Origin: Clostridia bacterium
GTDB lineage: Bacteria; Bacillota; Clostridia; UMGS1840
Reading direction: 5' to 3'
Length of the DNA: 64,000 bases
Assembly: GCA_045638525.1 (NCBI GenBank)
Contig: JAZUBQ010000005.1
Location: 76,989-140,988, forward strand
Made by a program: the position numbers and the translations under genes. This document shows, in pieces, positions 6,778 to 60,400 of the stretch (position 1 is the first letter of the stretch; each line of letters begins with the position of its first letter). Below the pieces are notes generated by a model. It worked only from the letters and a program-made list of their open reading frames with translations. It had not been told where the DNA came from and did no database searches.

Positions 6778-6806
6778 TTGCAAATCATAAACAACTATTG
6801 TATAAT
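6778..6806 (+). promoter_or_regulatory. Sigma-A type promoter candidate for hprK
   Basis: TTGCAA (6778-6783), a 17-nt spacer, then TATAAT (6801-6806). It sits 41 nt upstream of the hprK ATG. Confidence 0.5.
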
Positions 6807-6846
6807 AAGATGAAATAACATAAAAATAAGTCGGAGGGACTCAACA

Positions 6847-7785
6847 ATGGTTTCTTTTTCTGTTACACTAAACCAAATTATTAACGAATGTAACTTAGAA
6901 ATTGTATACGCTGATAAAGATTTAGACAAAGTATTGATTACCACCACCGATGTCAGTCGACCGGGACTTCAGTTTGTTGACTTTTTTGATTATTTTGATC
7001 ATAACAGAATTCAAATTTTCGGAAAAGTTGAACTCACATTTTTAGAGCAAAAAACTTCAGAACAACGACTACATTGTATTCGTGAGTTATGCAGTCGTGA
7101 AATTCCTGCTATTATCATTTCAAGAGATCAGGATGCTTTTCCTGAACTGATATCTGCTGCAAAAGAATTTCATATTCCTGTGTTACGAACCAAACAGACA
7201 ACCTCCAAATTCATGGCAAGACTGATTGCTTTTCTGAATCTGGAATTGGCAGAACGAGTTACTCTGCACGGTGTCTTATGCGAAGTATACGGAGAAGGTG
7301 TTCTGATTATGGGTGAAAGTGGCGTAGGTAAAAGCGAAACAGCCATAGAGCTCGTAAAAAGAGGACATCGTCTGGTTGCAGATGATGCTGTAGAAGTAAA
7401 AAAAGTTTCTGATAAATCATTGGTAGGAACTGCCCCGGAAAACATCCGTCACTACATAGAAATCCGCGGTATCGGTATTATCGATGTAAGACGAATTTTT
7501 GGTATGGGTGCTATTAAAGAAACTGAAAAAATAGACCTCATTATCAAGCTGGAAGCCTGGGATCCTAAAAAACAGTACGACAGACTGGGGCTTGTAACAG
7601 AATATTCTGAACTTTTAGGAAACGACATCCCTACGTTAAATATTCCTGTCAAACCGGGCCGAAACCTTGCGGTGGTTGTTGAGGTTGCTGCGATGAACAA
7701 TCGTCAGAAAAAGCTTGGATATAATGCGGCAGAAGAACTTAACAAACGATTAATGGAACAAATGTCAAAAGATTTACAAATTTAA
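6847..7785 (+). CDS. hprK: HPr kinase/phosphorylase
   Basis: 312 aa. Walker-A GESGVGKSETAIELVKRGHRLVADD and IEIRGIGIIDV are both signature HprK motifs. GGAGGG RBS upstream. Confidence 0.93.
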   Translation: MVSFSVTLNQIINECNLEIVYADKDLDKVLITTTDVSRPGLQFVDFFDYFDHNRIQIFGKVELTFLEQKTSEQRLHCIRELCSREIPAIIISRDQDAFPELISAAKEFHIPVLRTKQTTSKFMARLIAFLNLELAERVTLHGVLCEVYGEGVLIMGESGVGKSETAIELVKRGHRLVADDAVEVKKVSDKSLVGTAPENIRHYIEIRGIGIIDVRRIFGMGAIKETEKIDLIIKLEAWDPKKQYDRLGLVTEYSELLGNDIPTLNIPVKPGRNLAVVVEVAAMNNRQKKLGYNAAEELNKRLMEQMSKDLQI

Positions 7786-33321: not shown

Positions 33322-33398
33322 GCGCCTGTAGCTCAGTTGGATAGAGTATCAGACTCCGACTCTGAAGGTCGTGCGTTCGAATCGCATCAGGCGTACCA
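33322..33398 (+). tRNA. tRNA-Arg (anticodon CCG), CCA encoded
   Basis: Manual cloverleaf: acceptor GCGCCTG/CAGGCGT (G1-U72 wobble), D arm GCTC-AGTTGGATA-GAGT, anticodon arm TCAGA-CTCCGAC-TCTGA (U33, CCG, A37), variable loop AGGTC, T arm GTGCG-TTCGAAT-CGCAT, then ACCA. 77 nt in total. Confidence 0.9.
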
Positions 33399-36937: not shown

Positions 36938-38305
36938 TTATTTGAAATAATTGATAATACCCAAAACAAAAATTATAAAAATAATTGTGGGTAACACATA
37001 GGTCATATATCCTTTCATCCAATTAGGAAGTTTTAAACCTTTTCCGGTATTTGCTTCTTGGGTCAATTTATCCCAGCCAAATCCCTTCCGGTTAACTGCA
37101 AAGATAATATAAACCAGAGAACCTACCGGCAAGATTATGTTAGAAACCAAGAAATCTTCCAAATCCATCAAATTGGAATTTTGTCCAAAAGGATGAATAA
37201 AACTTAAAAGATTAAATCCTAAAATACAAGGCATTACCAGAACAAACATTAAAATTCCGTTCACAAGACAAGCTTTTTTACGACTCATGTTTGTTAAATC
37301 CAAAGTACAGGAAATAATGTTTTCAAACACTGCAAACACGGTGGAAAGTGCAGCAAAGCTCATAAAGATAAAGAAGAAGCTTCCCCAAATTCTTCCTCCT
37401 GCCATATGATTGAAAATATTAGGTAACGTCACAAAAATGAGCGGAGGTCCACTTTCTACATTCACGTTGTACGCAAAACATGCAGGAAAGATAATCAGCC
37501 CCGACGCAATGGCAACAAAAGTATCAAGTAATGAAATGGTTAATGATTCTCCCATCAAGGATCGGTCTTTTCCGATATAGCTTCCAAAAATCGCCATAGA
37601 ACCCATACCGATACTTAAAGTGAAAAACGCCTGATTCATTGCCGCAACAATAACATTGATAAGACCGTGTTCTTGAATTTTCGATGCATCAGGTAACAGA
37701 TAAAAGGCCAAACCTTCTTGTCCGCCGGCTAAAAAGATGCTGTTAATCGCTAATACAATCATAATACCAAGAAGTGCAAGCATCATCCATTTTGTTACTT
37801 TTTCCAAACCATTCTGAACACCGATGGAACAAACAAAAAATCCGATTATAATGACGATACCGGTGTATATAATCAAAGAAACAGGATCTGCGCAAACCTG
37901 GTTAAAAACGCCTCCGATTGCAGCTGCATCCATTCCCGAAAAAGCACCTTTTGCCGTCAGTACAAAATATTGCAACATCCAGCCGGCAACCACAGTATAA
38001 AACATCATCAACAGGTAATTCCCTGCCATTGCAACATACCCGTGCCAATGCCATTTTTGCCCAGGTTGTTCTAAAGCGTCATATAATTTTACAGGACTTC
38101 TCCCTGCTGCACGCCCCAATGAAAACTCAACGGTCAATGCAGGAACACCCATTAGTAATAAAAAAACAAGATAAATTAAAACAAATAATCCGCCACCATA
38201 CTGTCCGGCAATATACGGGAATTTCCATACATTCCCAATTCCGATAGCACAACCTGCACTAATTAAAATAAATCCAAGTCGACTACCTAATTTTTCTCTC
38301 TGCAT
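36938..38305 (-). CDS. Sodium-dependent transporter, SNF (neurotransmitter:sodium symporter) family
   Basis: 455 aa with about 11-12 TM segments. N-terminal SRLGFILISAGCAIGIGNVWKFPYIAGQYGGG is the NSS signature. Confidence 0.88.
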   Translation of the reverse strand: MQREKLGSRLGFILISAGCAIGIGNVWKFPYIAGQYGGGLFVLIYLVFLLLMGVPALTVEFSLGRAAGRSPVKLYDALEQPGQKWHWHGYVAMAGNYLLMMFYTVVAGWMLQYFVLTAKGAFSGMDAAAIGGVFNQVCADPVSLIIYTGIVIIIGFFVCSIGVQNGLEKVTKWMMLALLGIMIVLAINSIFLAGGQEGLAFYLLPDASKIQEHGLINVIVAAMNQAFFTLSIGMGSMAIFGSYIGKDRSLMGESLTISLLDTFVAIASGLIIFPACFAYNVNVESGPPLIFVTLPNIFNHMAGGRIWGSFFFIFMSFAALSTVFAVFENIISCTLDLTNMSRKKACLVNGILMFVLVMPCILGFNLLSFIHPFGQNSNLMDLEDFLVSNIILPVGSLVYIIFAVNRKGFGWDKLTQEANTGKGLKLPNWMKGYMTYVLPTIIFIIFVLGIINYFK

Positions 38306-42068: not shown

Positions 42069-42108
42069 TAAAAAAGACTTCATTAAAACTCATTTTAATG
42101 AAGTCTTT
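42069..42108 (-). terminator. Strong intrinsic terminator ending the hdr/flx/frd-like operon
   Basis: AAAGACTTCATTAAAA-CTCA-TTTTAATGAAGTCTTT, a 16-bp stem. On the minus strand it is followed by TTTTTTATTT. It lies 7 nt after the permease stop. Confidence 0.88.
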
Positions 42109-42114
42109 CAGATA

Positions 42115-43371
42115 TTAGAATAAAATAATGATAAACTGAGAAACCAATACAACAGCAATCAATGCAATGGGATAGGTTGCTGCATATGCTGCTGCAACAT
42201 CTTCAGTACCTGCAGTACCGATTAAGGTACCCAGTGCCGGGGTAGAAGTCATACCGCCGGTGATTGCACCTAAATTGTTTAACAGGCTCAATTTCAGCAC
42301 ATATTTTGCAAAAAGATATCCGATAATTAACGGAACTAAGGTCATAATGATACCATATACAAAGTACATTGCATCAAAATATGCAACGAAGTCAGCACCA
42401 CCAGGAACGCCGGCACCTACTAAGAACAGAACCAGACCTAATTCACGGAACAGTTTTAAGGTATGCTGATCGGGCATCATATTTAATTTACCAATTCTGC
42501 CGAAGTGTCCGAATACTAAGGATGCCAGTAAGCAACCGCCGGTAGTAGTCAAAGAGAAACAAGTTCCGGACAGCCCAGCGGAAGACATAGGAATTTTGAT
42601 TCTACCTAAGAATACACCAATCACTGCTGCCAGTGCAAATGCTGCAAAACCGTGACCATCTAAGCTTAATAATTTTCCGGTGAATACTTTTTTCTTACCT
42701 AAATCATCATCGCCCTGCACTAATTTTGCACGTTCTTCGTCCATATTAGCTTTAACCATTTTGGGAATCAGCTGAACGAACAGTACAACACCGATTACGC
42801 CGAAGATGTATGCAATCCCGTGACCAACGGAAACTAAGCTGGTCAGTTCAGGAGCAACGGTTGCTTTTGCTGCAGAGAATGCAGGAGTTGAGGTTAAAGA
42901 ACCGGACAACAGACCAACAATCATTGCAACGAAACCATCTAAAGAATCAATGGTTGCACCAAATCCGATTGCTTTCCCCATAAAAATACATCCAACAGCG
43001 GAAAGTCCACCGGCTAAAATAATGATAAAACCAAGTAACACATAAGATTTAAAGTTTTTCTTCATATTGCCGAAGAATTTGGGACCTGCGATGAAACCAA
43101 CTGAGGTAACAAACAGAATCAAACCTAAACTTTCAACAATTTCCAATGATTTTTCTCCAAAATCAACGCCGTTAAACACTAACTGATGTTCCAATGAGGG
43201 ATAAAAGAATGCACCGAATAACAATGCAATAACGAAAACGCCTGCATCCCCTAAGCAAACGCCTTTGATGGTGATTCTGCCCAATGCGTAACCAACAAAT
43301 AAGATCGCAAAGATACAGAACATTAAGTAGGTGATACCGGTAACAGGAATCACACCGCCGAATAAACTCAT
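42115..43371 (-). CDS. AAE-family (AspT/YidE/YbjL/SucE type, Asp-Al_Ex duplication) permease without TrkA-C domains
   Basis: Two repeats of the predicted-permease membrane region: GYALGRITIKGVCLGDAGVFVIALLFG and FLGRIKIPMSSAGLSGTCFSLTTTGGCLLASLVFG. Start at ATG 43371 after GGAAAGGAAG; ATG 43440 is an alternative. Confidence 0.72.
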   Translation of the reverse strand: MSLFGGVIPVTGITYLMFCIFAILFVGYALGRITIKGVCLGDAGVFVIALLFGAFFYPSLEHQLVFNGVDFGEKSLEIVESLGLILFVTSVGFIAGPKFFGNMKKNFKSYVLLGFIIILAGGLSAVGCIFMGKAIGFGATIDSLDGFVAMIVGLLSGSLTSTPAFSAAKATVAPELTSLVSVGHGIAYIFGVIGVVLFVQLIPKMVKANMDEERAKLVQGDDDLGKKKVFTGKLLSLDGHGFAAFALAAVIGVFLGRIKIPMSSAGLSGTCFSLTTTGGCLLASLVFGHFGRIGKLNMMPDQHTLKLFRELGLVLFLVGAGVPGGADFVAYFDAMYFVYGIIMTLVPLIIGYLFAKYVLKLSLLNNLGAITGGMTSTPALGTLIGTAGTEDVAAAYAATYPIALIAVVLVSQFIIILF

Positions 43372-43449
43372 ATTTTTCTTCCTTTCCGATTGATTCCCCG
43401 AAGCTTCTTTCATAGAATCTCCGGGGAATTTCATATTCATTATTAAATT

Positions 43450-45048
43450 TTATCTTTCGTGACGAGCATACTGAGGCAGTAACATGGGAGATACGCTGTC
43501 AGTAGCAAGACCTGCTGCTTCCAATTCTTTTGCGTAAGCTTGAACATGGTCTAAATTCATAGCACCCAGTTCAACGTCTTTTGCTTTTCTTGCTGCAGCT
43601 TTACCAGCATTTCTACCGAATACGATAATATCCAGTAAAGAGTTACCCATCAGACGGTTTCTGCCGTGGATACCACCAACAGCTTCCCCTGCTACCAACA
43701 GGTTGGGGATGGCTTTGGTATAGCCTTCGCCGCCGATTTCCAGACCGCCGTTCTGGTAGTGGAGAGTGGGATATACCAAGATGGGTTCTTTTCTCATATC
43801 AATGCCGTAGTTTAAGTACATTCTGAGCATTGCGGGAATTCTTTTTTCGATGGTGCCTTCGCCACCTAAAATTTCAATCATAGGAGTATCCAGCCATACA
43901 CCGGAACCTAAGGGAGTATCTACCCCTTTGCCATTTGCACATTCACGGATAATTGCGGATGCAGAAACGTCACGGGTTTCTAAGGGATGAGCGTAAGCTT
44001 CCCCGTCTTTGTTAACCAGCATTGCACCCAGGGAACGAACTTTTTCAGTTACCAATGCACCGAAAATCTGAGAGGGATATGCAACACCGGTAGGATGATA
44101 CTGAATGGTATCCTGATACAGAAGCGGAGCACCTGCACGATAGCCTAAAATCAGACCGTCTGCGGTTGCACCATAGTGGTTAGAGGTGGGGAAATTCTGG
44201 TAGTGAAGTCTTCCTGCACCACCGGTTGCAATAACAACAGTTTTTGCTTTTGCAACTGCGAAATCACCGGTTTCCATATTCAGAAGAACTGCACCTGCAA
44301 CCTGACCTTTGTCATCTTTAATCAGTTCTACTGCGGAAGTAAATTCCACAACAGGAATCTGACGATTGATAACTTCATCACGCAGAGTTCTCATAATTTC
44401 TGCACCGGAGTAGTCTTTACAAGCATGCATTCTCTTACGGGAGGTACCGCCACCGTGGGTAGTAACCATTCTGCCGTCTGCATCTTTATCAAACATAACG
44501 CCTAAATCATTTAACCAACGGATTGCATCAGGAGCTTCCATAACCAGACGTTTTAACAGTTCGGGACGAGCTGCAAAGTGCCCGCCGCCAAATGCATCCA
44601 GGTAATGCTGAACGGGAGAGTCATTTTCTTTGTCTGCTGCCTGAATACCGCCTTCTGCCATCATAGTGTTAGCATCACCGATACGCAGTTTTGTAACGAT
44701 CATAACGTTAGCGCCTGCTTCATGAGCTTCGATTGCTGCAGAAGAACCTGCACCACCGCCACCGATAACCAAAACGTCAACATCATAATCTACTTTGGAT
44801 AAATCAATGTTTTCGTTTAACAAACGGCTGTTGGAGTGAATTAAATCAGTCAGTTCCAGAGGAGCTTTTTCACCTTTGTTGGGACCAATTTTGATTTCAG
44901 CAAAACCTTCCTTACGGTAGTCGGGATGATACTGTTCAAGGAGAGCCTGTTTTTCTTCCGCAGTCATTCTTCTGGGTTCGGTTTTCATACGTTCCGCTCT
45001 GGTAGCTTCTACTTTTTTAATAGATTCACGCATAGATTCTGTAAACAT
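43450..45048 (-). CDS. FrdA/SdhA/TfrA-like FAD flavoprotein (fumarate-reductase-type) with about 85-aa N-terminal extension
   Basis: 532 aa. Motifs VLVIGGGGAGSSAA, AEGGIQAA, IQYHPTG and NRLMGNSLLDIIVFGR. No His at the covalent-FAD position. GGAGGAG RBS. Confidence 0.78.
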   Translation of the reverse strand: MFTESMRESIKKVEATRAERMKTEPRRMTAEEKQALLEQYHPDYRKEGFAEIKIGPNKGEKAPLELTDLIHSNSRLLNENIDLSKVDYDVDVLVIGGGGAGSSAAIEAHEAGANVMIVTKLRIGDANTMMAEGGIQAADKENDSPVQHYLDAFGGGHFAARPELLKRLVMEAPDAIRWLNDLGVMFDKDADGRMVTTHGGGTSRKRMHACKDYSGAEIMRTLRDEVINRQIPVVEFTSAVELIKDDKGQVAGAVLLNMETGDFAVAKAKTVVIATGGAGRLHYQNFPTSNHYGATADGLILGYRAGAPLLYQDTIQYHPTGVAYPSQIFGALVTEKVRSLGAMLVNKDGEAYAHPLETRDVSASAIIRECANGKGVDTPLGSGVWLDTPMIEILGGEGTIEKRIPAMLRMYLNYGIDMRKEPILVYPTLHYQNGGLEIGGEGYTKAIPNLLVAGEAVGGIHGRNRLMGNSLLDIIVFGRNAGKAAARKAKDVELGAMNLDHVQAYAKELEAAGLATDSVSPMLLPQYARHER

Positions 45049-45062
45049 AATTTCTCTCCTCC

Positions 45063-45737
45063 TTACTTCTCAATTTCTCTGGTGTTATAGAGTTCTTTCA
45101 TCTCGGTGATGGGTTTTTGCATAATCTGTTCGATTAACTCATCGTATTCACCTTTATTGATTTCAGCAACACGGCTTTTCAGATGCTCGGTTTCAGGAGC
45201 AATGTATTTACCGGTTAAACGACGAGCCAATACACCAACCAACGGATGAGAAATGCCTGCAGGACATCTGGTGGAACAGCATCCGCAACCTACACAGTCA
45301 AAGGATAATTCAGCACATTTTTCAAATTCGCCTCTCTGTGCATGAGCGATGTACTGCATAACATCTAAGTCCTGAGTACAAGCTTTGGTACAAGCATTAC
45401 AACCGATACAGCTGTAAATTTCAGGATATAATTCCATCATTACCTGCTGATTGGGTTTGATTTCATTGATATCATAAATTCTTTTATCAGTGGGAAAGAA
45501 CGGGATGCTTGCAACATACATTCCTTCCTGCACCTGAGTCTGACAAGCCAGACAGGTTTTTAATTCATTCTGTCCTTTGATACGGTAAATGGTAGCACAA
45601 GCACCACAAAAACCGTGACGGCAGCCGCAACCTCTTTTTAAGGTGTAGCCTGCATATTCCATTGCAGTCATAATAGTTAAATCTGCAGGAACCTGATAGC
45701 GTTTGCCAAAGAAAAATACATTTACTTTATTTTCCAT
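45063..45737 (-). CDS. FrdB/SdhB-like iron-sulfur protein ([2Fe-2S] plus two cubane-cluster motifs)
   Basis: 224 aa. N-terminal plant-type ferredoxin pattern GCGCRHGFCGACATIY...CLAC. Also CIGCNACTKAC and CVGCGCCSTRCP. Confidence 0.72.
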   Translation of the reverse strand: MENKVNVFFFGKRYQVPADLTIMTAMEYAGYTLKRGCGCRHGFCGACATIYRIKGQNELKTCLACQTQVQEGMYVASIPFFPTDKRIYDINEIKPNQQVMMELYPEIYSCIGCNACTKACTQDLDVMQYIAHAQRGEFEKCAELSFDCVGCGCCSTRCPAGISHPLVGVLARRLTGKYIAPETEHLKSRVAEINKGEYDELIEQIMQKPITEMKELYNTREIEK

Positions 45738-45759
45738 AATTTAAACATTCCTTTCTGCA

Positions 45760-46617
45760 TTAGTACTCAGCGGGTAATTCGTCGATTTCATCGCAACGGA
45801 ACACGGGACCGTCTTTACATACGTATTTGGAACCGATATTGCAACGTCCACATTTACCAACACCACATTTCATACGAAGTTCCAAAGTGGTGTACACCTG
45901 TTCTTTGGAAAAGCCCATTTCGATTAATGCTGCCAAAACGAATTTGATCATAATCGGTGGTCCGCATACCAATGCAGTTTTGTTGTTTTCAAAACCGAGT
46001 TCTTTCAAATAAGAAGGAACAAATCCAACATGACCGTCCCAACCGTCCTGTTCACGGTCGATGGTCAGATGTACGTTAATGCCCTCTTCTTTTGCCCAAA
46101 CTTCCTGAATTTCTTTTAAGTATACCAAGTCATCCATACTTCTGGAACCGTATAAAATATCAACGGTACCATAGTTTGCTCTGTTATCAATTACATAGTT
46201 GATAACAGAACGCAGAGGTGCCAAACCAATACCACCTGCAATAAAGAGCAGGTTTTTACCTTTTAATTCGTCGGTTTCTACGGGGAAATTGTTACCATAG
46301 GGACCTCTTACGGTCAGTTCTTCACCTACTTCCATAGTATGAAGATAATCGGTTAACACACCACATCTTTTAATACTGAATTCCTGATATTCTTTATTGG
46401 TGGGAGAAGAAGTGATAGAGAACATTGCTTCCCCAACACCGGGAACGGAAACCATTGCACACTGACCGGGCAGATGTTCAAACAGTTTACCGCCTTCCGG
46501 AGCGTTCACACGGAAAGTTTTAACATCGGGAGTCTGCTGGGTAATGTGAGTAATAATGCCGATTTTCGGAACTAAAGTATCTTCGGTGTAATGTTCGTGA
46601 CAGTTACAATCGCACAT
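45760..46617 (-). CDS. FlxA-like FAD/NAD(P)H-binding oxidoreductase with C-terminal [2Fe-2S] (AsrB / sulfhydrogenase-gamma / PyrK family)
   Basis: 285 aa. Ferredoxin-reductase fold (GEAMFSITSSP, LLFIAGGIGLAPL) and a C-terminal CGVGKCGRCNIGSKYVCKDGPVF. Confidence 0.75.
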   Translation of the reverse strand: MCDCNCHEHYTEDTLVPKIGIITHITQQTPDVKTFRVNAPEGGKLFEHLPGQCAMVSVPGVGEAMFSITSSPTNKEYQEFSIKRCGVLTDYLHTMEVGEELTVRGPYGNNFPVETDELKGKNLLFIAGGIGLAPLRSVINYVIDNRANYGTVDILYGSRSMDDLVYLKEIQEVWAKEEGINVHLTIDREQDGWDGHVGFVPSYLKELGFENNKTALVCGPPIMIKFVLAALIEMGFSKEQVYTTLELRMKCGVGKCGRCNIGSKYVCKDGPVFRCDEIDELPAEY

Positions 46618-47648
46618 TATTTGTCTCCTCCTTCCTTAGCAAATGCTTTGATTACTTTTACAATATTTAATGAGGACGGACATTTGTCAACACATCTGCC
46701 GCAACCTACACAAGAGTACATTCCATTGTTATTTGCAGGGAAATATACTAATTTATGCATAAATCTCTGACGGAAACGCTGCATCTGGCTGTTACGGTTG
46801 TTACCGTGTGCCATCATGGTAAAGTCAGAGTACATGCAGGAATCCCAACAACGATATCTCTGAACGCCGTTTCCGGTGTTATAGTCTTTGATATCGTAAC
46901 ACTGACAAGTGGGGCAAACAAAAGTACAAGTTCCGCAAGCCAGACAAGGTTTGTATAATTCTTCCCAAATGGGAGATTCAAATTTTTCGGTTAATACATC
47001 ACCATTCCAGCCATCCAAAGAAATGTTCATATAAGGAAGTTTTTCTACGATAGCTTTGGTGGTTTCCTGCTGCGCTTTTACAGTGGAATCGTCGGTATCT
47101 TCCAGTAATTCTTTTACAGCTTCGGTGAAAACGTTACCTTTATCGGTTAAAGGATTCCAATACAGATAATCCCCTACCAACCAAGTTGCGACATCTGCTT
47201 TCGGGTCGGTACAGTCAATACCGAATGCTTTACAGAAGCAGCTTTCTTCCGGCTCGTTACAAGCTAATGCAACTAAAATACCATGGTCACGACGTGCTTT
47301 ATAGAAAGTATCAACAGGTTCGGATAAAAATACTTTATCCAAAACCTCAATCCCTTTCACATCACAGCCTTTGATTCCAAACACAACAAATTCCTGACTC
47401 TGCAGTTCTTCGGGGGTAATAGCCCATTTTTTATCTTCTTTATTACAGGTATATAAGGTTTCACTCTGGGGGAAGAATGCATCTTTGGCAGATTTAACGG
47501 TTTTTAAGGTTTCCAAAGCTACATCACAGCCGTCAGTATATACAGCATAGTTTACCTGATCAGCTGCACGAACGGGAAGATATAATTCTCTTTGTTCTTT
47601 GATTTTCCGGAATAATGCCGGTAAGTTATTTTTAGCAATTTTTAACAT
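46617..47648 (-). CDS. FlxB-like 4Fe-4S protein (AsrA / sulfhydrogenase-beta family)
   Basis: 343 aa. Motifs CLACGTCTFVCPTCQCYD and CVGCGRCVDKCP. Start/stop overlap with the downstream gene. Confidence 0.7.
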   Translation of the reverse strand: MLKIAKNNLPALFRKIKEQRELYLPVRAADQVNYAVYTDGCDVALETLKTVKSAKDAFFPQSETLYTCNKEDKKWAITPEELQSQEFVVFGIKGCDVKGIEVLDKVFLSEPVDTFYKARRDHGILVALACNEPEESCFCKAFGIDCTDPKADVATWLVGDYLYWNPLTDKGNVFTEAVKELLEDTDDSTVKAQQETTKAIVEKLPYMNISLDGWNGDVLTEKFESPIWEELYKPCLACGTCTFVCPTCQCYDIKDYNTGNGVQRYRCWDSCMYSDFTMMAHGNNRNSQMQRFRQRFMHKLVYFPANNNGMYSCVGCGRCVDKCPSSLNIVKVIKAFAKEGGDK

Positions 47649-47654
47649 ACTACA

Positions 47655-48620
47655 TTATCCCCTTTCGTTAGGCTCTCTGTCGGTAAACTCGAAATGAGTT
47701 AAGGGAGCTTCTGCATTGATATCTTCTCCGGCAACATAATCACCGTAAAACTCGTTGATATCTTTGATGAATTTTCTATTAAATAAATGAAGCGGGATGC
47801 CCTGGGGACAAACTCTGCTACATTCACCACAGTCAGTACATCTGCCTGCTACGTGGAACGCACGGATAATATGGAACATATTTTCCTGGAAATCATCCAC
47901 ATTTGCTTTTTGTGCAGTATCAAATTTGGTGCTGTCGAACACACATTTTCTGCAGCTGCAAGCAGGACAAACATTTCTGCAGGCATTACAACGGATACAT
48001 TTGGATAATTCCTTACGGAAGAATGCAAATTTTTCTTCAGAAGACATTTTTTCAATTTCTTCTACACCTGCAAAACGGTCTACAGTTGCAGTATCACGGG
48101 ATTCTAACATCTGTTCGTCAAAAATCACGTGTTCTTTTCCTTTACAAGAGTGGCAACGAGATAACATTACATCATCGTAAGAAACAGTTTTGTCACCATA
48201 AACAGTGGAGATTGCCAAAGTATCGCAAGCATCAGTCATTTCGATGCCTTTGATGGTTTCAATCCCTTTAATACCCTGTTTTTTGATTGCTTCAATATCT
48301 AATTTCCCTTTACAGCCAACACCGATGATATATGCTTTATCACGGTCCACACGATGTTCTTTTAACAGCTGATTAAAGCTATAGGAATCACAGGGTTTTA
48401 AAAATACTAAAGTTTTGCCTTCCTTTTTGGAAGCTTCAATCATATATTTGCTTAAGTTTGCACCGCAGAATCCGTTATAAACGAAATCGGATAACGCATC
48501 TTCATTTTCAAAAAATGCCGGTTCAGGATTATATGCTAAATCCCCGATTTTCCATCCCAACACACGGGCAACGGTGCCGTCTTTTAACAGCTCTTTTGCA
48601 CGGGTTACTAATTCTTGCAT
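47655..48620 (-). CDS. FlxC-like 4Fe-4S dicluster protein
   Basis: 321 aa. Motifs CIRCNACRNVCPACSC and CTDCGECSRVCP, plus an extra CHSCKG. The start overlaps the mvhD end by 13 nt. Confidence 0.6.
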   Translation of the reverse strand: MQELVTRAKELLKDGTVARVLGWKIGDLAYNPEPAFFENEDALSDFVYNGFCGANLSKYMIEASKKEGKTLVFLKPCDSYSFNQLLKEHRVDRDKAYIIGVGCKGKLDIEAIKKQGIKGIETIKGIEMTDACDTLAISTVYGDKTVSYDDVMLSRCHSCKGKEHVIFDEQMLESRDTATVDRFAGVEEIEKMSSEEKFAFFRKELSKCIRCNACRNVCPACSCRKCVFDSTKFDTAQKANVDDFQENMFHIIRAFHVAGRCTDCGECSRVCPQGIPLHLFNRKFIKDINEFYGDYVAGEDINAEAPLTHFEFTDREPNERG

Positions 48621-49048
48621 CGTAAATCCCCCAATCTAACGTTTTTGCCTAAAGAACGAATGGTTTCCACAAATTCGTTCATGGTCTGAGAGAATTTCAC
48701 GCCTTCTGCCGCAGATACCCATTCTACACGGGTTCTTCCTTTTTCAATGCCGAGATATTCCAGCATAGAGAAAAGCAGAGTCATACGACGACGTGCATAA
48801 TAGTTACCGGTAGAATAATGACAGTCTCCGGGGTGACATCCACAAAGGATAACACCATCTGCACCTTTTTCAAATGCTCTTAAAATGAACATAGGATTCA
48901 CACGACAAGAGCAAGGCACTTTAATAATTTTTACGTCTGCGGGATAGGAAAGACGGCTGCTGCCTGCTAAATCCGCACCTGCATAACTACACCAGTTACA
49001 ACAAAATGCAACAATTTTCGGTCTGAATTCGTTTTCGTTTAACGGCAT
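48608..49048 (-). CDS. mvhD: MvhD/FlxD (methyl-viologen-reducing hydrogenase delta subunit family) [2Fe-2S] protein
   Basis: 146 aa. Signature IVAFCCNWCSYAGADLAG...KVPCSCRV...CGCHPGDCHY. Confidence 0.88.
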   Translation of the reverse strand: MPLNENEFRPKIVAFCCNWCSYAGADLAGSSRLSYPADVKIIKVPCSCRVNPMFILRAFEKGADGVILCGCHPGDCHYSTGNYYARRRMTLLFSMLEYLGIEKGRTRVEWVSAAEGVKFSQTMNEFVETIRSLGKNVRLGDLRCKN

Positions 49049-51027
49049 ATCGCATCCACCTCCGCAATAATTTGTCTGTTAGAGAAGCCCTGCAGGTCCA
49101 TAGCACCGGAAGGACAGGTAACGGTACAAGCACCACATCCCTGACACAGTGCGCTGTTAACCTGAGCCAGTCTTCTCACTTCACGGATACCGTGATCGTT
49201 TACTTCTTTATCTTCATAGGTAATTGCTCCGTAGGGACAAACATTTGCACACTGAGAGCAACCGTTACAAAGCAGTTCATCGGGTTTTGCAGTACAGGGG
49301 TTGGTAGTCAGTTTATCTTTTGCCAACAAGCCAATCGCTTTTACTGCTGCTGCACCTGCCTGAGCTACCGTTTCGGGAATATCTTTGGGACCCTGACATA
49401 TGCCGGACAGGAATACACCCGCTGTGGGAGATTCCACAGGACGCAGCTTGGGATGTGCTTCGGTTAAGAAGTTATTGGTATCAATACTTGCAGTCAACAT
49501 AGTTGCAATTTTACGAACACCTGCTTCCGGTTCGATTGCAGTTGCCAATACAACCATATCTGCTTCTTTTAAGATCTGTTTGTTATCTAATAAGTCAGAA
49601 CCCTGAACCAACAATTTACCGTTGGGCAGCGGAGCAACTTTACCAACCTGACCTTTTACATAATTTACGCCATATTCTTCCACGGCACGTCTGTAGAATT
49701 CATCAAAGTTCTTACCGGGAGTACGAACGTCGATATAGAACACGGTTACGTTTACATCCGGATATTTATCACGAATCAGCATCGCGTGTTTTGCAGTATA
49801 CATACAACAGATTTTAGAACAGTAGCTTTTACCTCTGTTATCAGAGCAACGGCTACCAACACACTGGATGAATACCATTTCTTTCGGAGCTTTTCCATCA
49901 GATAAACGTTCCAAATGACCTTTGGTAGGACCAGCAGCGTTCATAATACGTTCTAACTCTAAAGAAGTAATAACGTCTTTGCTCTGGTTATATGCATATT
50001 CATCGTAGTTATCTAATTTAATGGTATCAAAACCGGTAGCAACTACGATTGCACCGTATTTTTCGGTTATAATTTCATCCTGCTGGTTGTAATCAATCGC
50101 ACCTGCCTGACAAACTTTTTCACAAACACCGCATTTACCGGTTTTAAACTTGGTACAAGCTTCACGGTCAATTACAGGTACATTGGGAATTGCCTGTGCA
50201 AACGGAGTGTAAATAGCACTTCTGGTATTTAATCCTCTGTTAAATTCGTTTAAGGATTTTTTAGAAGGACATTTTTCCTGACAAACGCCACAACCGGTAC
50301 ATTTATCACTGTTAACACTTCTTGCTTTTTTACGGATATCTACGGTAAAGTCACCAACGAAACCGGTAACTTTGTCTACTTCGGAATAAGTATAGATATT
50401 AATTTTTTCATGTGCAGCTGCTTCTACCATTTTGGGAGTTAAGATACAAGCAGAACAGTCCAATGTGGGGAATGTTTTGTCAAGCTGAGACATTCTTCCA
50501 CCAATGGAAGGAGTTTTTTCTACGATATCTACTTCATATCCTGCATCTGCAATATCAATTGCAGTTTGGATTCCTGCGATACCGCCGCCGATTACCAACG
50601 CACGTTTGGTAACACGGCTTTCCCCTGCCTGTAAGGGAGTGTTTAAGTTAACTTTTGCTACAGCAGCTCTTGCTAAAATAACTGCTTTCTCAGTAGCTTC
50701 TTCCATATCCTTATGAATCCAGGAGCAATGCTCACGAATGTTGGCGATTTCCACCATATAAGGATTGAGTCCTGCACGTTCAGCAGCTTTTCTGAAGGTT
50801 GCTTCGTGCATACGGGGAGAACAAGAACAAACAACAACACCGGTCAGGTTCTTTTCTTTTACCGCTTCCAAAATTTTCATCTGCCCTGCTTCAGAACACA
50901 TGTAAGGATAATCCTCAGCGTGAACAACGCCGGGTTCATTTTTAATAATTTCAACAACTTTTTCTACATTTACCGTTGCGGCGATATTGGAACCGCAATG
51001 ACAAACAAAAACACCGATTCTTTGCAT
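49039..51027 (-). CDS. hdrA: Heterodisulfide reductase subunit A-like flavoprotein (HdrA)
   Basis: N-terminal CHCGSNI. FAD motif LVIGGGIAGIQTA. Ferredoxin motifs CTGCGVCQEKCP, CGVCEKVC, CNGCSQCANVCP and CQGCGACTVTCP. Start at ATG 51027 after AGGTAGGTGA, or GTG 51036. Confidence 0.9.
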   Translation of the reverse strand: MQRIGVFVCHCGSNIAATVNVEKVVEIIKNEPGVVHAEDYPYMCSEAGQMKILEAVKEKNLTGVVVCSCSPRMHEATFRKAAERAGLNPYMVEIANIREHCSWIHKDMEEATEKAVILARAAVAKVNLNTPLQAGESRVTKRALVIGGGIAGIQTAIDIADAGYEVDIVEKTPSIGGRMSQLDKTFPTLDCSACILTPKMVEAAAHEKINIYTYSEVDKVTGFVGDFTVDIRKKARSVNSDKCTGCGVCQEKCPSKKSLNEFNRGLNTRSAIYTPFAQAIPNVPVIDREACTKFKTGKCGVCEKVCQAGAIDYNQQDEIITEKYGAIVVATGFDTIKLDNYDEYAYNQSKDVITSLELERIMNAAGPTKGHLERLSDGKAPKEMVFIQCVGSRCSDNRGKSYCSKICCMYTAKHAMLIRDKYPDVNVTVFYIDVRTPGKNFDEFYRRAVEEYGVNYVKGQVGKVAPLPNGKLLVQGSDLLDNKQILKEADMVVLATAIEPEAGVRKIATMLTASIDTNNFLTEAHPKLRPVESPTAGVFLSGICQGPKDIPETVAQAGAAAVKAIGLLAKDKLTTNPCTAKPDELLCNGCSQCANVCPYGAITYEDKEVNDHGIREVRRLAQVNSALCQGCGACTVTCPSGAMDLQGFSNRQIIAEVDAICR

Positions 51028-51036
51028 TCTACTCAC

Positions 51037-51423
51037 CTACCTTTTATATCTTCTGAAGGCACTTACCAGCAACTGCTGAGGAAGTTCTTCGTCTAATAAC
51101 GCGGGAATTTCGTCGGCAGATAAATAATCTCCGCCACGTTCACGAACAACCAACTGACGTGCTGCGTCAATTAATTTTCCGGGTTTAACATCTCTGGGGC
51201 AACGTTCCACACAAGCAAAGCAGGATAAACATTTCCATAAGGATTTGGATTCCGCCAAAGCTTCGATTTCACCACTCTGCACATAGGATACAAACTGATG
51301 GGGTTTGATGTCCATTTCATTGTATGACGGACAGGTTGCAGAGCATTTGCCGCATTTCATACATTTGTAAGGATTTACACCGCTGATTTCTTTGATTTTT
51401 TCAGCACGATTGTTATGACTCAC
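51037..51423 (-). CDS. hdrC: Heterodisulfide reductase subunit C-like 4Fe-4S dicluster protein (HdrC)
   Basis: 128 aa. Motifs CMKCGKCSATCP and CLSCFACVERCP. Confidence 0.85.
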   Translation of the reverse strand: MSHNNRAEKIKEISGVNPYKCMKCGKCSATCPSYNEMDIKPHQFVSYVQSGEIEALAESKSLWKCLSCFACVERCPRDVKPGKLIDAARQLVVRERGGDYLSADEIPALLDEELPQQLLVSAFRRYKR

Positions 51424-52217
51424 TACTCGCTCGCCTCCTCTTTAATTCCCAGAGCTTCTGCTAACAGCTCGGTGAAATAGTAAACAGGTAACTCTGTCTG
51501 GGAAGATTTATTTAAGTTATACATACAAAGCGGACAAGCGGTAATGAGACAATCTGCCATAAAACCTTTTGCGCTTTCTTTAATAGTATCGCACATATTT
51601 TTTGCCATTTCTTTTTCTTTTAAAGAAATGTATCCGCCGCAACATTCGTTACGGTAGGGATAAATAACAGGCTCAGCGCCAAGTGCACGAATAAAGTCTT
51701 CCATAATTTTCGGATTTTCGGGATTATCAAATGCCATAACGCTTCCGGGACGGAGCAACAAACATCCATAATATGCACCGATTTTTCTACCGGTTAAAGG
51801 ATTGGTTACTTTTTCTTTCAAAGCATCAAATCCGATTTTATCACGAAGAACTTCCAGATAATGAAGCACAGTTGTTTCACCAGCGTATGGTTCATCGAGC
51901 TTCATATAATTGTTGGCACGGTTTCTGATGTCATCCACATTTGCCATATCGTCATTCACGCGTTTTAACACATGATGACAAGCGGAACAAACGGTTACCA
52001 GATCCTGCCCTTTTTCTTTTGCATCATTTAATGCACGAACAGAGGACAATTTGGTTGCGATTTCATCATTGCCTAACGGATAAACACCGCCGCAACATTG
52101 CCAATCTTCAATTTCTTCCAGAGTGAAGCCAAGAGCTTCGGCACACTTTCTGGCATAATCGTCCAGAGTTTTTGCCTTGTTTTTTAAGGTACATCCGGGA
52201 TAGTAACTATACTTCAT
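51423..52217 (-). CDS. hdrB: Heterodisulfide reductase subunit B-like protein (two CCG domains, HdrB)
   Basis: 264 aa. Two CCG motifs: YYPGCT...WQCCGG and YYGCLL...NECCGG...ACPLC. Confidence 0.88.
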   Translation of the reverse strand: MKYSYYPGCTLKNKAKTLDDYARKCAEALGFTLEEIEDWQCCGGVYPLGNDEIATKLSSVRALNDAKEKGQDLVTVCSACHHVLKRVNDDMANVDDIRNRANNYMKLDEPYAGETTVLHYLEVLRDKIGFDALKEKVTNPLTGRKIGAYYGCLLLRPGSVMAFDNPENPKIMEDFIRALGAEPVIYPYRNECCGGYISLKEKEMAKNMCDTIKESAKGFMADCLITACPLCMYNLNKSSQTELPVYYFTELLAEALGIKEEASE

Positions 52218-52345
52218 ACTACAAGATTCCTTTCCTAACGATTGATGGGTAACAGATACTATATCTTATGCTTTTTTCATGCTTTGCTTGTTAAAAAAAT
52301 AACAATAACTGCCATATACAGCCATAATAGCATAATACAGTATCC

Positions 52346-52374
52346 ATTTTATCACATCTTATTGCAATAGACAA
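52346..52374 (-). promoter_or_regulatory. Sigma-A type promoter candidate for the hdr/flx/frd-like operon
   Basis: The minus strand reads TTGTCT (52374-52369), a 17-nt spacer, then TGaTAAAAT (-10 at 52351-52346 with an extended TG). The leader to the hdrB ATG is about 120 nt. Confidence 0.45.
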
Positions 52375-52525: not shown

Positions 52526-53884
52526 TTAAATTTTTAAAACTCCAAAAGCTTCTAACAATGAAGAAAGCAAAATTAATAAAATGAAAATAGGCGCAATGTA
52601 TTTAATCATCACAACAAAGATTTTCTTGGATTTGAATTTTGCTGAGCTTTCCACTTCGTCAATGACAGCTTGGGGTTTGATGATATAACCAATGAAGATA
52701 CAGGTTAAAAGTGCAACAATAGGCATTAACACGCTGTTACTGATAAAATCAAAGAAATCAAGGAAAGACATTCCGATGATTTTCACACTATCCCATACTC
52801 CATATCCCAACGCAGAAGGAATACCTAAGACAATGGAAATAAGTAAAACAATTAAGCAAGAAATTGTTCTGTTCAACTTAAATTTATCCCCAACAATAGA
52901 TACCACAGTTTCCATCAGCGAAATAGATGAAGTCAGAGCTGCAAACAACACCAAAATAAAGAACGAAGAACCTATCATAGTTCCTGCCGGCATGGCTTCA
53001 AATACCTTCGGCAAAGTTACAAACATCAAACTGGGACCTTTTCCCAATGCTTCGGGAGTACCACCGGAAAATACAAACACTGCGGGAATAATCATTAATC
53101 CTGCAAAGAAAGCAATACCGGTGTCAAAGAGTTCGATCTGTTTTACAGAGGATTCCAGATTTACTTCTTTTTTCATATAGGAACCATAGGTAATCATAAT
53201 TCCCATTGCCAATGACATTGAATAGAACAACTGCCCCATTGCTGCTAAAACAGTAGTAATGGAAAACTTAGAGAAATCGGGCTTAACATAATAGATTAAA
53301 CCATCGATTGCACCGGGCATAAACAAAGCGTAAATCGCAATAAAAACTGAAAGAACAACCAAAACAGGCATCATAATTTTGCTGACTTTTTCGATACCCT
53401 TTTCAACGCCTAACAACACAACAACAGCTGTAACAAATAAAAACAAGGAAAACCACAAAATAGGACTGAAAGTCTGTGATATGAACGTTCCGAAATATGC
53501 ATCGGTTGCCGCCTCAGCAGCACCACCGGACAAAAATGCATATAAATATTTACTTACCCAACCGCCAATTACACAATAATACGGAAGAATAATCATTGGG
53601 ACAACAGACGCCAGATAACCAATGAAACTATACTTTTTGTTTAAAGAACGAAAAGCTCCGATTGCGCTGAGACCTGTTTTTCTTCCCAAAGAAATCTCTG
53701 CTGTCATCAGGGTAAACCCAAAAGTTACCGCCAAAATAATGTATACTAATAAAAATATGCCACCACCATATTTAGCGGCAAGATACGGAAATCTCCAGAT
53801 ATTGCCAAGTCCAACTGCAGAGCCCGCAGCCGCAAGCACAAATCCGATTTTCCCGGTAAAACTGCTTCTTGTATTATTCTCCAT
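52526..53884 (-). CDS. Sodium-dependent transporter, SNF family (second paralog)
   Basis: 452 aa. NSS signature GFVLAAAGSAVGLGNIWRFPYLAAKYGGG. About 11-12 TM segments. Confidence 0.88.
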   Translation of the reverse strand: MENNTRSSFTGKIGFVLAAAGSAVGLGNIWRFPYLAAKYGGGIFLLVYIILAVTFGFTLMTAEISLGRKTGLSAIGAFRSLNKKYSFIGYLASVVPMIILPYYCVIGGWVSKYLYAFLSGGAAEAATDAYFGTFISQTFSPILWFSLFLFVTAVVVLLGVEKGIEKVSKIMMPVLVVLSVFIAIYALFMPGAIDGLIYYVKPDFSKFSITTVLAAMGQLFYSMSLAMGIMITYGSYMKKEVNLESSVKQIELFDTGIAFFAGLMIIPAVFVFSGGTPEALGKGPSLMFVTLPKVFEAMPAGTMIGSSFFILVLFAALTSSISLMETVVSIVGDKFKLNRTISCLIVLLISIVLGIPSALGYGVWDSVKIIGMSFLDFFDFISNSVLMPIVALLTCIFIGYIIKPQAVIDEVESSAKFKSKKIFVVMIKYIAPIFILLILLSSLLEAFGVLKI

Positions 53885-57458: not shown

Positions 57459-60400
57459 CTATTCAATAACAGGTTTTATTAAAACTTTTTCGGTTGCTGT
57501 TGTTAATGGTTTAAGTGAATTTAAGTTACTCCACAAAAATGCTTTTAATGTGCAGAATTCTTCGCCTACATACTGAATATTTATATCATTCACTGTAGCA
57601 ACTATCATATAACTGTTCATATCTACCAGAACAGGGCGAATGCTATCCAATTTACCAGTCTCGTCATACACTGCTAACAAACAGGTTGCAGAATCACCCG
57701 GTGTTCTGGCAACAATCGTTACACAAACATCATCTCCGCCATAGTTATTTGTTTCGTGATAGAATGCATCTTCTTTTAATTCGATGGTTTCATCTAATAA
57801 AACAATATAGTTTTCCGCTACTTCTATATGAATATATGTATCCATCAGCTGAGTTGTTCCGTTCCAATTGGTACCAGCAAAACATATCATCTTAAATTCA
57901 GGAGATGTTCCGTATGCAATCTCAGAGCCTGCAATCAGCGGTTCATCACCAAGAAACACCAGATTTTTCAGATTTTCGCACTCATAAAAAGCACAATTCA
58001 AAACTTTTGCTACGGTTTTTGGAAGAACTACAGTATTCAAATTTTCGCAATAAGCAAATGCATATTTTTCAATATTGGTGACTCCCTCTTGCATATGGAT
58101 ATACTTAATTGCACTATTATAGAATGCATATTCCGGGATCTTTGTAATACAATCCGGAAGTATGACAGATTCTACTTGTGTACCGCTGAAATTAAAGTAA
58201 GAGAGGAAACTAAATCCGCTCAAATCCAATTCTCCGCATACCGGTTTGTCCGATAAATCAACTCTGCTGATGCGGTATTCATCGTCAACCTTTCTCCAGA
58301 TGATACCGTCCCAGGTTCCAGGCCAATCCCAGTCCCAACCTAAAACTTCTGCATTTGCACCGGTACATAAGAACGCAATCAGTTCGTTAACCTCATCCTG
58401 ATTAAACATTTCCGTACCATCTGTGATGTTCTGTGTTGCATAGGTTGCAATTCCGGTGCTTAAACCGGCCTGATTCAACGAAGATTCAACATCCGCAACC
58501 TCCAGGAAGTTCTCATCACAATTCAGATCACTTAAAGAAGAACAATCTGCGATTTCCAAGGATGTTATTCCGGAATTATAACAGTTCACACTGCTAAGAT
58601 TCACACAACCTGATAAATTAAGGGTTGACAAAGAACTGTTCTCGCAGGATACACTTTCAACATATTCTGCCTCAGGTAAGTTGAAATCACCTTCCAGATC
58701 CAGATTGTCGAAATTGATATTGGTAACATGATATTCATCCCCGATAATTTTCCACTCAACGCCCTCCCAGCTGTATGGATCGTCCAAATCCCAACCCAGC
58801 TTTTCAAGATTCAAAGATGTGTTGGCAAATGCACTTAAGCTGGAAAGTTCTGCAGCATTGAAATCGTATCCTTCGTTGTATTTTTGTGTTCCCAACACAG
58901 CAGAACCGCCGTTCAGATTGATAGCATTCATCTGGTTCATCAAATCTGCATTTTGGGATTCCACAATTCTGTTTTCGCTACATAAGAATGTGTTCAGATT
59001 TGTGTTTGTTGAAATATCAATAGAATACAGTTCATTATTTCCGCATCTTACAGTTTGCAATGTTGTTGCACCGCTCATGTCCAAATCATTAATTTGATTT
59101 CCATAGCAATTCAGCTCGGAAAGCTGCGCCATATCAGATACATCCAGCGATGAAATATTGTTGAATGCACAATTTAATGTTTGCAGATTATTGCATTCCT
59201 CAACATACAAGGAACCGATACTATTTGCGATACAGCTTAATGTAACCAGTTCGGTGCACTCAGAAACAACCAGCATAGAAATTGCATTTCCATCTAAATT
59301 CAGATTCTGCAATTTGGGGAAATTGTTTGCATTAAACCATCCGCCTAAGTTCAAATAACTTAAGTCAATATCCACCACATTACCATCCGTGTTCCACTTA
59401 ATTCCTACCCATGTGGAGGAATCCTCAATGTCCCAACCGACAGTTTCCAGCATCAATTCATTATCTCTCTGTTGGAAGAAGGAATTCAATGCATCGAATT
59501 CCTCTTCGTTCAATTCCACAATACCATTGCCGTATAAGGGTTCAGAGAATAAATGTGCTTTCGATGTACTCGGAATTTTTTTGGTTGACATAGCGGCATG
59601 ATAAGTAATCATTGAATGGCAATCACCAAACGCAGCCAACTTCCCAACTGTTCCATTGACACCAAAGAAGCAGGTAAGTCTATTGAACGGACAAACGTGA
59701 AGCAAATGGCTGAGCATATTAGTAATACCACCGGATTTACTCGCTGCAAGTGCCAACCCCTCAGAAAAATAGTGAAACGCTTCTTCTGCACAATATGAAT
59801 ATTTATTTGGATCATGATGATAATATTCATCCAAAGTTCCCCAGGTACCTACAACATAGTCTCTTATATCTGTTGGAGTTCCCGCATTCCAATTATAATC
59901 AGGATCGCCGTATTCTAACGCCATCATATCTGCAAATACGCCATTGGTTCTAAGCAATTCTGCAGAATTGAATGTATAGATTCTGCCATGTTTCTTAAAT
60001 CCCCAATTCGTAGAAAATGGCATATATGTTACAAAGTCTAATTCGTTGCACACATTAATTATATTTTTTAAGCCGGTATCGGGTGACTGTGTTGTATTAG
60101 GAGTTGCAAACAAATATGCATATACTTTGTCATACTTTGAATTGTTTGTAATACTTTCGGCCAACAGATTGCCGGCTGCAGCACCACGGCTGTGACCGGT
60201 GATAACAACCAGAGGATTTTTGATTTTATTTTCATCAAGATAATCTTCTAACTGTTCTTCAGCATCAACCGCTGCTTTATAAAATGAATAGTGCTCATCA
60301 AAGCATGCACTGTTGTCTCCTGATACCATCATATTTCCTTGCCATGCTTCTTTGGTATTGGATCCTTGAATAATAACAAACACCAGATCTTTAGGAACTA

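Follow-up and report, generated by a model that had tools for sequence, protein, structure and literature searches.

How do the many strictly fermentative Clostridia that excrete succinate form it, when they possess neither quinones nor a membrane-bound fumarate reductase? The question is raised by a ten-gene operon in a Clostridia bacterium of the GTDB lineage UMGS1840 (assembly GCA_045638525.1, contig JAZUBQ010000005.1, positions 76,989 to 140,988 of the forward strand); we refer to this stretch of 64,000 nucleotides as the window, and coordinates without further label are positions within it. An open reading frame (ORF) scan reproduced exactly the ten co-directional minus-strand ORFs, running from 52217 to 42115, on which an initial annotation had based its proposal: seven genes of the FlxABCD-HdrABC type, a pair resembling the fumarate reductase subunits FrdB and FrdA, and a permease of the AAE family. 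The best explanation for this gene set is, in our view, that it encodes a cytoplasmic, quinone-independent NADH:fumarate reductase system that probably bifurcates electrons to ferredoxin, a reading in which we place moderate confidence. Its two parts are graded differently: that the fumarate reductase depends on Flx-Hdr appears highly likely from the genes and their arrangement, and bifurcation to ferredoxin we judge to be evenly balanced. The annotation's proposal of a soluble, NADH-driven enzyme of the fumarate reductase type is supported by synteny, by active-site residues and by linkage to fumarase.

Conservation of the gene neighborhood had been chosen beforehand as the main point on which the proposal could fail. 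One genome per GTDB species was scanned with the family alignment as query; because the motifs of this alignment are superfamily-wide, 596 relatives were returned, including ordinary FrdA, SdhA and NadB proteins, and all locus counts rest on the best 80, in which the flavoprotein is 71-92% identical to that of the window. When the ten window proteins were mapped onto these loci by tblastn, the order and strand of HdrB-HdrC-HdrA-MvhD-FlxC-FlxB-FlxA-FrdB-FrdA were the same in all 57 loci that have enough flanking sequence, with no exceptions, the other 23 of the 80 being cut by contig ends. The attachment of FrdBA to Flx-Hdr is fixed in this clade of gut Clostridia. All 80 loci carry the label Clostridia/Bacillota except for one metagenome-assembled genome (MAG) labelled Treponema (L072), and they originate mostly from gut or faecal samples of humans, mice, chickens or ruminants; isolates such as Fusicatenibacter faecihominis, Sporofaciens musculi, Ohessyouella blattaphilus and Lachnospiraceae 3-2 are among them. 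The operon abounds in gut metagenomes, where near-identical proteins number in the thousands and one cluster holds 1301 sequences.

Profiles from Pfam and NCBIfam, applied to the genes delimited by the ORF scan, confirm every domain call and the gene order of the initial annotation, and all seven subunit types of FlxABCD-HdrABC are present and clustered in the window. The 264-residue HdrB (51423-52217) matches the Pfam CCG domain in two stretches (68 bits) and has both CX31-39CCX33-34CXXC motifs intact; its scores against the NCBIfam models for HdrB (142 bits) and SdhE (144 bits) are both under the cut-offs. HdrC (51037-51423; 128 residues, GTG start) is a dicluster protein with two CxxCxxCxxxCP [4Fe-4S] motifs that matches its model at 65 bits, also under the cut-off. 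The candidate site of bifurcation is HdrA (49039-51036), a protein of 665 residues binding flavin adenine dinucleotide (FAD) and Fe-S clusters, which matches NCBIfam HdrA2 at 792 bits over model positions 1-640 and contains a GGGIAG dinucleotide-binding motif, the signature CVGSRx8YCSxxCC and three CxxCxxCxxxC cubane motifs. MvhD/FlxD (48608-49048; 146 residues) matches Pfam FlpD over its full length (187 bits). It is followed by two poly-ferredoxin proteins: a FlxC-like protein of 321 residues (47655-48620), with Fer4_8 and related dicluster domains, two CxxCxxCxxxCP motifs and further Cys clusters, and an AsrA/ShyB-like, FlxB-like Fe-S protein of 343 residues (46617-47648), which matches Pfam Fer4_22 (107 bits) and, under the cut-offs, NCBIfam ShyB (195 bits) and AsrA (155 bits). 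The FlxA-like protein (45760-46617; 285 residues, AsrB/HydG-like) combines the Pfam domains FAD_binding_6, NAD_binding_1 and DHODB_Fe-S_bind and scores 205 bits against NCBIfam AsrB, under its cut-off; we infer that this NAD(P)H-FAD-[2Fe-2S] protein is the entry point of electrons, with NADH as donor. Inspection of the motifs found those for Fe-S, CCG and FAD intact across the operon proteins.

The FrdB-like subunit (45063-45737; 224 residues) carries a Pfam Fer2_4 domain and a Fer4_7 dicluster, with a [2Fe-2S] motif of the form C39x4C44x2C47x14C62 and two [4Fe-4S] motifs, CIGCNACTKAC and CVGCGCCSTRCP. Because both CxxCxxCxxxC motifs are complete, its second cubane would be a full [4Fe-4S] cluster and not the [3Fe-4S] cluster of SdhB. 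Neither the Pfam scan nor motif inspection detected a CCG domain in this protein. Its partner, a flavoprotein of 532 residues (43450-45048) related to FrdA and TfrA, matches Pfam FAD_binding_2 (234 bits) and gave no match to Succ_DH_flav_C (PF02910) in Pfam. The best NCBIfam match is TfrA, at 341 bits against a cut-off of 718 (E value, 1e-101; model positions 6-426 of 546); the NadB model scores 262 bits against a cut-off of 453, less than the TfrA and the Frd/Sdh models. Along with these two proteins, the ORF list of the operon contains no membrane-anchor gene.

Residues that bind fumarate or succinate are present in alignments of the flavoprotein both to SdhA/FrdA and to members of its own family. 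When aligned to solved SdhA and FrdA chains, H318, T334/E335, R359, H430 and R465 coincide with the catalytic residues of SdhA, within the retained motifs HPTG, TE, RD, HY and NRL, and in a ten-sequence family alignment reaching down to 40% identity the catalytic residues are invariant except T334. The His that binds FAD covalently in SdhA and FrdA is replaced by Asn127 (GDANT), which is likewise invariant in the family, and the FAD is therefore predicted to be non-covalently bound. Such an Asn goes with reduction of fumarate rather than oxidation of succinate, and the direction of a reductase is therefore favored. Glu121 of E. coli NadB, which we take to be a residue specific to NadB, is matched in our reading of the alignments by His198 or Gly199 and not by Glu. 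The protein also has an N-terminal extension of 88 residues with an invariant HP...G...G pattern (HPDY, G55, N57, G59) that is shared from Clostridia to Gammaproteobacteria. A profile of this extension found nothing under E = 0.17 among PDB sequences, and an AlphaFold2 model of the flavoprotein, built from a shallow alignment (71-93% identity), reached a mean predicted local distance difference test score (pLDDT) of 61.6, with 210 residues below 50, and could not place the extension.

For the identity of the substrate, independent evidence comes from the genes that lie 3' of frdA in the related loci. At least 41 of the 80 loci have genes for the alpha and beta subunits of class-I fumarase, a two-subunit Fe-S enzyme, directly downstream of frdA, on one or the other side of the permease, and permease homologs follow frdA in 49 of the 80. 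The tail is variable: permease then fumarase in 16 loci, fumarase then permease in 10, permease only in 15 plus 8 truncated loci, fumarase only in 11 plus 8 truncated, and neither in 6 plus 6 truncated. Because fumarase makes fumarate and its genes are part of the operons of these relatives, fumarate is the substrate as far as genomics can settle the matter. The window itself has the permease-only form. Its permease (42115-43371) matches Pfam Asp-Al_Ex in two stretches (183 bits), contains two Asp-Al_Ex/YidE-YbjL duplication domains (TIGR01625, 124 bits against a cut-off of 72), and scores 114 bits against the AspT equivalog, far under the cut-off of 547, such that it is described best as an AAE-family protein of the AspT/SucE/YidE type. 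It presumably moves a C4-dicarboxylate, and both this substrate and the direction of transport are read from its family and gene context.

Taken together, the gene products suggest the following path. NADH would be oxidized at the FAD and [2Fe-2S] cluster of FlxA, and the electrons would pass through the poly-ferredoxins FlxB and FlxC and through MvhD/FlxD to the FAD of HdrA. From there, the high-potential branch would run by way of HdrC and the CCG clusters of HdrB to the FrdB-like protein and the non-covalent FAD of the FrdA-like protein, where fumarate would be reduced to succinate. The low-potential branch would most likely lead to ferredoxin by flavin-based electron bifurcation at HdrA, giving the reaction 2 NADH + fumarate + Fd(ox) -> 2 NAD+ + succinate + Fd(red). 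The AAE permease may then export succinate or exchange it for malate or fumarate. Standard potentials are -320 mV for NADH, +33 mV for fumarate and about -420 to -500 mV for ferredoxin; calculated from these, the bifurcating reaction would be exergonic by roughly 30-50 kJ/mol.

Of this scheme, the gene content, the intact cofactor and active-site motifs, the synteny and the fumarase linkage are observed here, and NADH as donor, one physical complex, direct transfer of electrons from HdrB to FrdB without a thiol, the reduction of ferredoxin and the direction of transport are inferences. A suggestion of direct contact comes from the methanogen enzyme TfrB: the NCBIfam model of this one polypeptide is matched by three separate window proteins, the FrdB-like subunit (model positions 19-168), HdrC (122-219) and HdrB (263-487). 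Because TfrB fuses FrdB-like and HdrB-like parts, a Rosetta-stone argument suggests that FrdB and the CCG protein touch in the window system as well. A natural fusion of FrdB with FrdA, present in a more distant relative (protein P0123), adds support for the pairing of those two subunits. We would accordingly entertain, as a tentative proposal held with slightly less than even confidence, that all nine redox proteins form one soluble megacomplex of a new bifurcating class, in which fumarate is wired from the CCG clusters of HdrB to FrdB without a thiol.

Several considerations weigh against the reading of the operon as a bifurcating fumarate reductase. Everything for this organism rests on sequence and synteny. 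No protein of the operon reaches any NCBIfam equivalog cut-off, and because of this the assignments are at the level of families and exact specificities are not assured. There is no fumarase gene within the 64-kb window, and the structure model of the flavoprotein is too poor to show docking surfaces. The remaining points are those from which alternative explanations draw. Fumarate is so strong an electron acceptor that non-bifurcating reduction by NADH is feasible: across so wide a gap in potential, coupling is unnecessary and a plain reductase is thermodynamically just as possible, so that Flx, MvhD and HdrABC could be a mere wire in a soluble NADH:fumarate oxidoreductase that reduces no ferredoxin and conserves no extra energy. 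Marine gammaproteobacterial relatives do pair FrdBA with a NuoF-like NADH module only, with no Hdr, and a fumarate reductase that is soluble and dependent on NADH was purified from Hydrogenobacter thermophilus (Miura et al. 2008, as cited in PMC13147460). Against this stands the cost of the arrangement: seven extra redox genes, among them a full-length HdrA with bifurcation-associated motifs, are kept in all 57 complete loci, and it is because the complete HdrA module is so strictly retained that a case for bifurcation can be made. To our knowledge, which comes chiefly from Mvh-Hdr, the HdrA complexes studied to date are bifurcating or confurcating, and this too counts against a simple wire. 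The physiology of Pseudoclostridium (Hungateiclostridium) thermosuccinogenes under H2 has also been read as fitting ferredoxin-coupled formation of succinate (PMC7282089), and on balance we regard the non-bifurcating alternative as unlikely.

A different possibility is that the operon encodes two enzymes joined by a soluble thiol/disulfide couple, with Flx-Hdr acting as a bifurcating reductase of a disulfide, either in a small molecule or in a DsrC-like protein, and the thiol being re-oxidized by a thiol:fumarate reductase, as in TfrAB. The two CCG motifs that a disulfide-reducing HdrB possesses are both complete in the window HdrB, which would fit a real thiol/disulfide intermediate too, the flavoprotein finds its best curated match in TfrA, and the Flx-Hdr literature assumes a thiol or DsrC as acceptor (Ramos et al. 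2015, as relayed by PMC7282089). However, a soluble thiol shuttle is disfavored because the FrdB-like protein has no CCG domain, leaving FrdBA alone without the thiol-oxidizing site that defines TfrB, and because no gene for a thiol carrier or DsrC-like protein occurs in the window operon or in any of the 80 loci; HdrB, as the only CCG protein, would need both to reduce and to oxidize the couple. We therefore consider such a shuttle improbable. It is more improbable still, to the extent of being hardly credible, that the flavoprotein acts on another substrate, whether L-aspartate (as a NadB-like oxidase) or another enoate, or that the system runs in reverse as a confurcating enzyme oxidizing succinate. 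NadB models score well, NadB has the same active-site residues, and the AAE family includes AspT; yet the TfrA and Frd/Sdh models outscore NadB, about half of the relatives have fumarase genes in the same operon, the position of NadB Glu121 holds His or Gly, having Asn at the covalent-FAD His position speaks against efficient oxidation of succinate, and P. thermosuccinogenes, with the same type of operon, excretes succinate (PMC7282089). The combination of L-aspartate oxidase with AspT was rejected, given the linkage to fumarase genes and the lack of a NadB-type Glu.

The reading of the operon as a bifurcating fumarate reductase is not new in kind. The initial annotation knew of no characterized complex of this composition, and full-text literature searches indeed found no purification, assay or structure of one; the novelty that this seemed to imply was overstated, since the same composition has been published as a predicted bifurcating fumarate reductase (PMC7282089, PMC6315080, PMC11636981). 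The closest precedent is the 'succinate operon' of P. thermosuccinogenes, which comprises a fumarate hydratase gene, seven Flx-Hdr genes, two fumarate reductase genes and a putative succinate transporter, is co-regulated and rises about 4-fold under CO2 limitation (PMC7282089). According to the proposal made for it, NADH-dependent reduction of fumarate would be coupled to the reduction of ferredoxin (PMC7282089; and, so far as its proposal is given there, the preprint of Koendjbiharie and van Kranenburg 2019). The host, like that of the window, belongs to the class Clostridia, and produces succinate; the inventory of seven, two and one genes is the same, the likeness being one of gene composition only, and when proteins were searched again, with the family profile, the matches came from the close clade already obtained, without P. 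thermosuccinogenes among them. The two systems differ in that fumarase is described as a single gene, listed first in the operon, in P. thermosuccinogenes, a two-subunit class-I enzyme downstream of frdA in the window clade, and lacking in the window, whose host is, unlike P. thermosuccinogenes, a mesophilic gut or rumen bacterium.

In the tubeworm symbiont Ca. Endoriftia persephone and in Thioflavicoccus mobilis, tfrAB genes are interspersed with flxABCD-hdrABC and korABCD, and a joint bifurcating complex has been hypothesized (PMC6315080, PMC11636981). As in the window, a TfrAB-like soluble fumarate reductase sits among Flx-Hdr genes; however, those clusters belong to Gammaproteobacteria with an autotrophic reductive tricarboxylic acid (TCA) cycle and occur with ATP-citrate lyase, Rnf and PntAB, whereas the window has no kor genes and comes from a fermentative Clostridium, and the tfrAB genes of Endoriftia are not co-expressed with the rest of the cluster (PMC11636981). 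Methanogen TfrAB, as described in PMC6315080 from Heim et al. 1998, resembles the window system in being soluble and quinone-independent and in joining FrdA-like, FrdB-like and HdrB-type CCG modules. It differs in that TfrB holds its Fe-S and CCG modules in one polypeptide, whereas in the window each is encoded separately, one near either end of the operon; the window flavoprotein has 88 extra N-terminal residues and lacks about 120 C-terminal residues relative to TfrA, it scores under that model's cut-off, and the TfrAB donors, the thiols of coenzymes M and B (CoM-SH and CoB-SH), are absent from Clostridia.

The FlxABCD-HdrABC cluster of Desulfovibrio vulgaris has the same seven protein types and was proposed to form an NADH-dependent bifurcating complex (Ramos et al. 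2015, in the account of PMC7282089). That cluster is linked to ethanol metabolism, its proposed acceptor is DsrC and it includes no fumarate reductase, in contrast to the window type with its invariably attached FrdBA. We know of no direct demonstration of NADH-dependent ferredoxin-reducing activity even for this Desulfovibrio prototype of Flx-Hdr. The fumarate reductase of H. thermophilus is said to have five subunits encoded by genes scattered in the genome, and reportedly no bifurcation has been described for it. It is like the window system in being a soluble, multi-subunit, NADH-dependent enzyme that uses no quinone, so far as it is characterized in PMC13147460. Classical FrdABCD and SdhABCD share with the window proteins the fold of the flavoprotein, the full set of catalytic residues and an Fe-S partner in which a [2Fe-2S] cluster precedes the cubanes; they are set apart by their membrane anchor, covalent-FAD His and Succ_DH_flav_C domain, all absent here, by the second cubane, which is full [4Fe-4S] in the window, and by the Fer2_3 domain, which is below threshold in the window FrdB-like protein. 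An association of HdrA with Sdh/Frd in Ruminococcus champanellensis was noted in a 2024 preprint, and a survey of April 2026 still introduces the complex with the words 'it has been suggested' (PMC13147460).

More distant relatives of the flavoprotein reveal a modular history. In one locus, whose flavoprotein is 57% identical (L084, 811-9771), HdrA-MvhD-HdrC-HdrB-FrdB-FrdA comes after a four-subunit 2-oxoacid:ferredoxin oxidoreductase and Flx is absent; this resembles the reductive TCA arrangement of Endoriftia in placing the oxidoreductase next to hdr-frdBA. The fusion protein P0123 (727 residues) lies at 5250-7433 of a 7.7-kb contig that bears no hdr or flx genes (L087, 54% identity). In MAGs of marine Gammaproteobacteria/Thiotrichales (L085, 9366-12891, and also L086), FrdB-FrdA is followed by a NuoF-like gene with Complex1_51K and NADH_4Fe-4S domains and there are no Hdr genes; the flavoprotein of L085 is 46% identical and has the same N-terminal extension. 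These three genes have the look of a soluble NADH:fumarate reductase that does without Hdr. At 44% identity, frdA precedes frdB, the reverse of the window order, among tiny unannotated ORFs (L089, 8001-10357), and a member of the identical-protein cluster of this flavoprotein is annotated as coming from Prochlorococcus sp. MIT 1201. One would not expect a picocyanobacterium to have such a soluble, fumarate-reductase-like pair. In a further locus the flavoprotein, 42% identical, stands alone (L088). Because the relatives occur in such varied contexts, FrdBA is best viewed as a soluble catalytic module that has been joined to differing modules of electron input.

The hypothesis, then, is already published, the gene set would be no surprise to a specialist, and the enzyme itself is predicted and uncharacterized. 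What is added here is the unbroken synteny of all 57 complete loci in Clostridia of gut and rumen, the variable tail of fumarase and permease, the modular relatives, the arguments from the FrdB::FrdA and TfrB-type fusions, and a residue-level case for a fumarate reductase with non-covalent FAD. Proof, together with the breadth of distribution, would be the new element, rather than the idea, for what is a candidate bifurcating reaction of ecological weight. If the reading is correct, the operon would explain how succinate is formed in fermentative Clostridia of this kind, and the widespread bacterial Flx-Hdr module would gain a defined acceptor. Under the tentative megacomplex proposal, it would be the main succinate-forming and ferredoxin-generating route of many species of quinone-free gut and rumen Clostridia (among Lachnospiraceae, Oscillospiraceae, Acutalibacteraceae, Christensenellaceae and relatives of Ruminococcus), and the first Flx-Hdr system with an identified physiological acceptor other than a thiol. 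If the enzyme bifurcates, extra energy would be accounted for as well, with reduced ferredoxin feeding Rnf or hydrogenases. Since the operon is present in at least 80 species-level genomes from guts, it could matter for pools of succinate in the gut, for the balance of hydrogen and methane in the rumen, and for the production of bio-succinate.

Adjacent flx-hdr genes overlap or lie at most 6 nt apart throughout: hdrB and hdrC overlap by 1 nt, hdrC and hdrA are adjacent, hdrA and mvhD overlap by 10 nt, mvhD and flxC by 13 nt, flxC and flxB are separated by 6 nt, and flxB and flxA share base 46617. This last junction had been recorded as a gap of 0 nt and is instead a 1-nt overlap; the others are as listed in the initial annotation, including the gaps of 22 nt between flxA and frdB and 14 nt between frdB and frdA. 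The gap of 78 nt between frdA and the permease gene presupposes a start at ATG 43371, and this choice appears reasonable: a ribosome-binding site, GGAAAGGAAG, lies directly upstream of 43371 and none precedes 43440, the start of the longest ORF, for which reason the former is the more plausible. The strongest intrinsic terminator of the region closes the operon (42072-42109, minus strand; 17-bp stem and T run), where a strong terminator had been noted.

The promoter-like element proposed upstream of hdrB does exist (52346-52374, minus strand; TTGTCT-17-(TG)TAAAAT, with 9 of 12 consensus matches and a TG-extended -10). It is not evidence by itself, because such sites are no more common in the region than in shuffled sequence (29 found against 28.7 expected). 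Between this element and hdrB, 88 nt before the start of that gene, the 5' leader contains a perfect palindrome, TTGTTATTTTTTTAACAA (52288-52305). It resembles TTGTTAANNNNTTAACAA, which we take to be the operator of clostridial Rex, the repressor that senses NADH/NAD+, and it is the sole perfect match in the 64 kb, where 0.07 would be expected. Upstream of hdrB in the related loci the site is not conserved, with 6 of 57 having a version with at most two mismatches against about 3 expected, and reading the palindrome as a Rex operator is no more than a lead. Neither in the window nor in the leader did Rfam show a riboswitch; the only match at the gathering threshold in the window is a tRNA gene at 33322-33395.

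The genes flanking the operon are unrelated to it and include an SNF transporter, GFO/IDH oxidoreductases, a trypsin-like protease, a glycoside hydrolase and large surface proteins. Of the two SNF-family (sodium:neurotransmitter symporter) genes, one lies directly upstream of the operon (52526-53884), with a terminator-like hairpin at 52509-52492, and the other is at 36938-38305. The surface-type proteins are one of 1511 residues (57459-61994), with BspA-type leucine-rich repeats and a class-3 lipase domain, and one of 610 residues (62007-63839), with Lectin_like, Peptidase_C1 and Big_2 domains.

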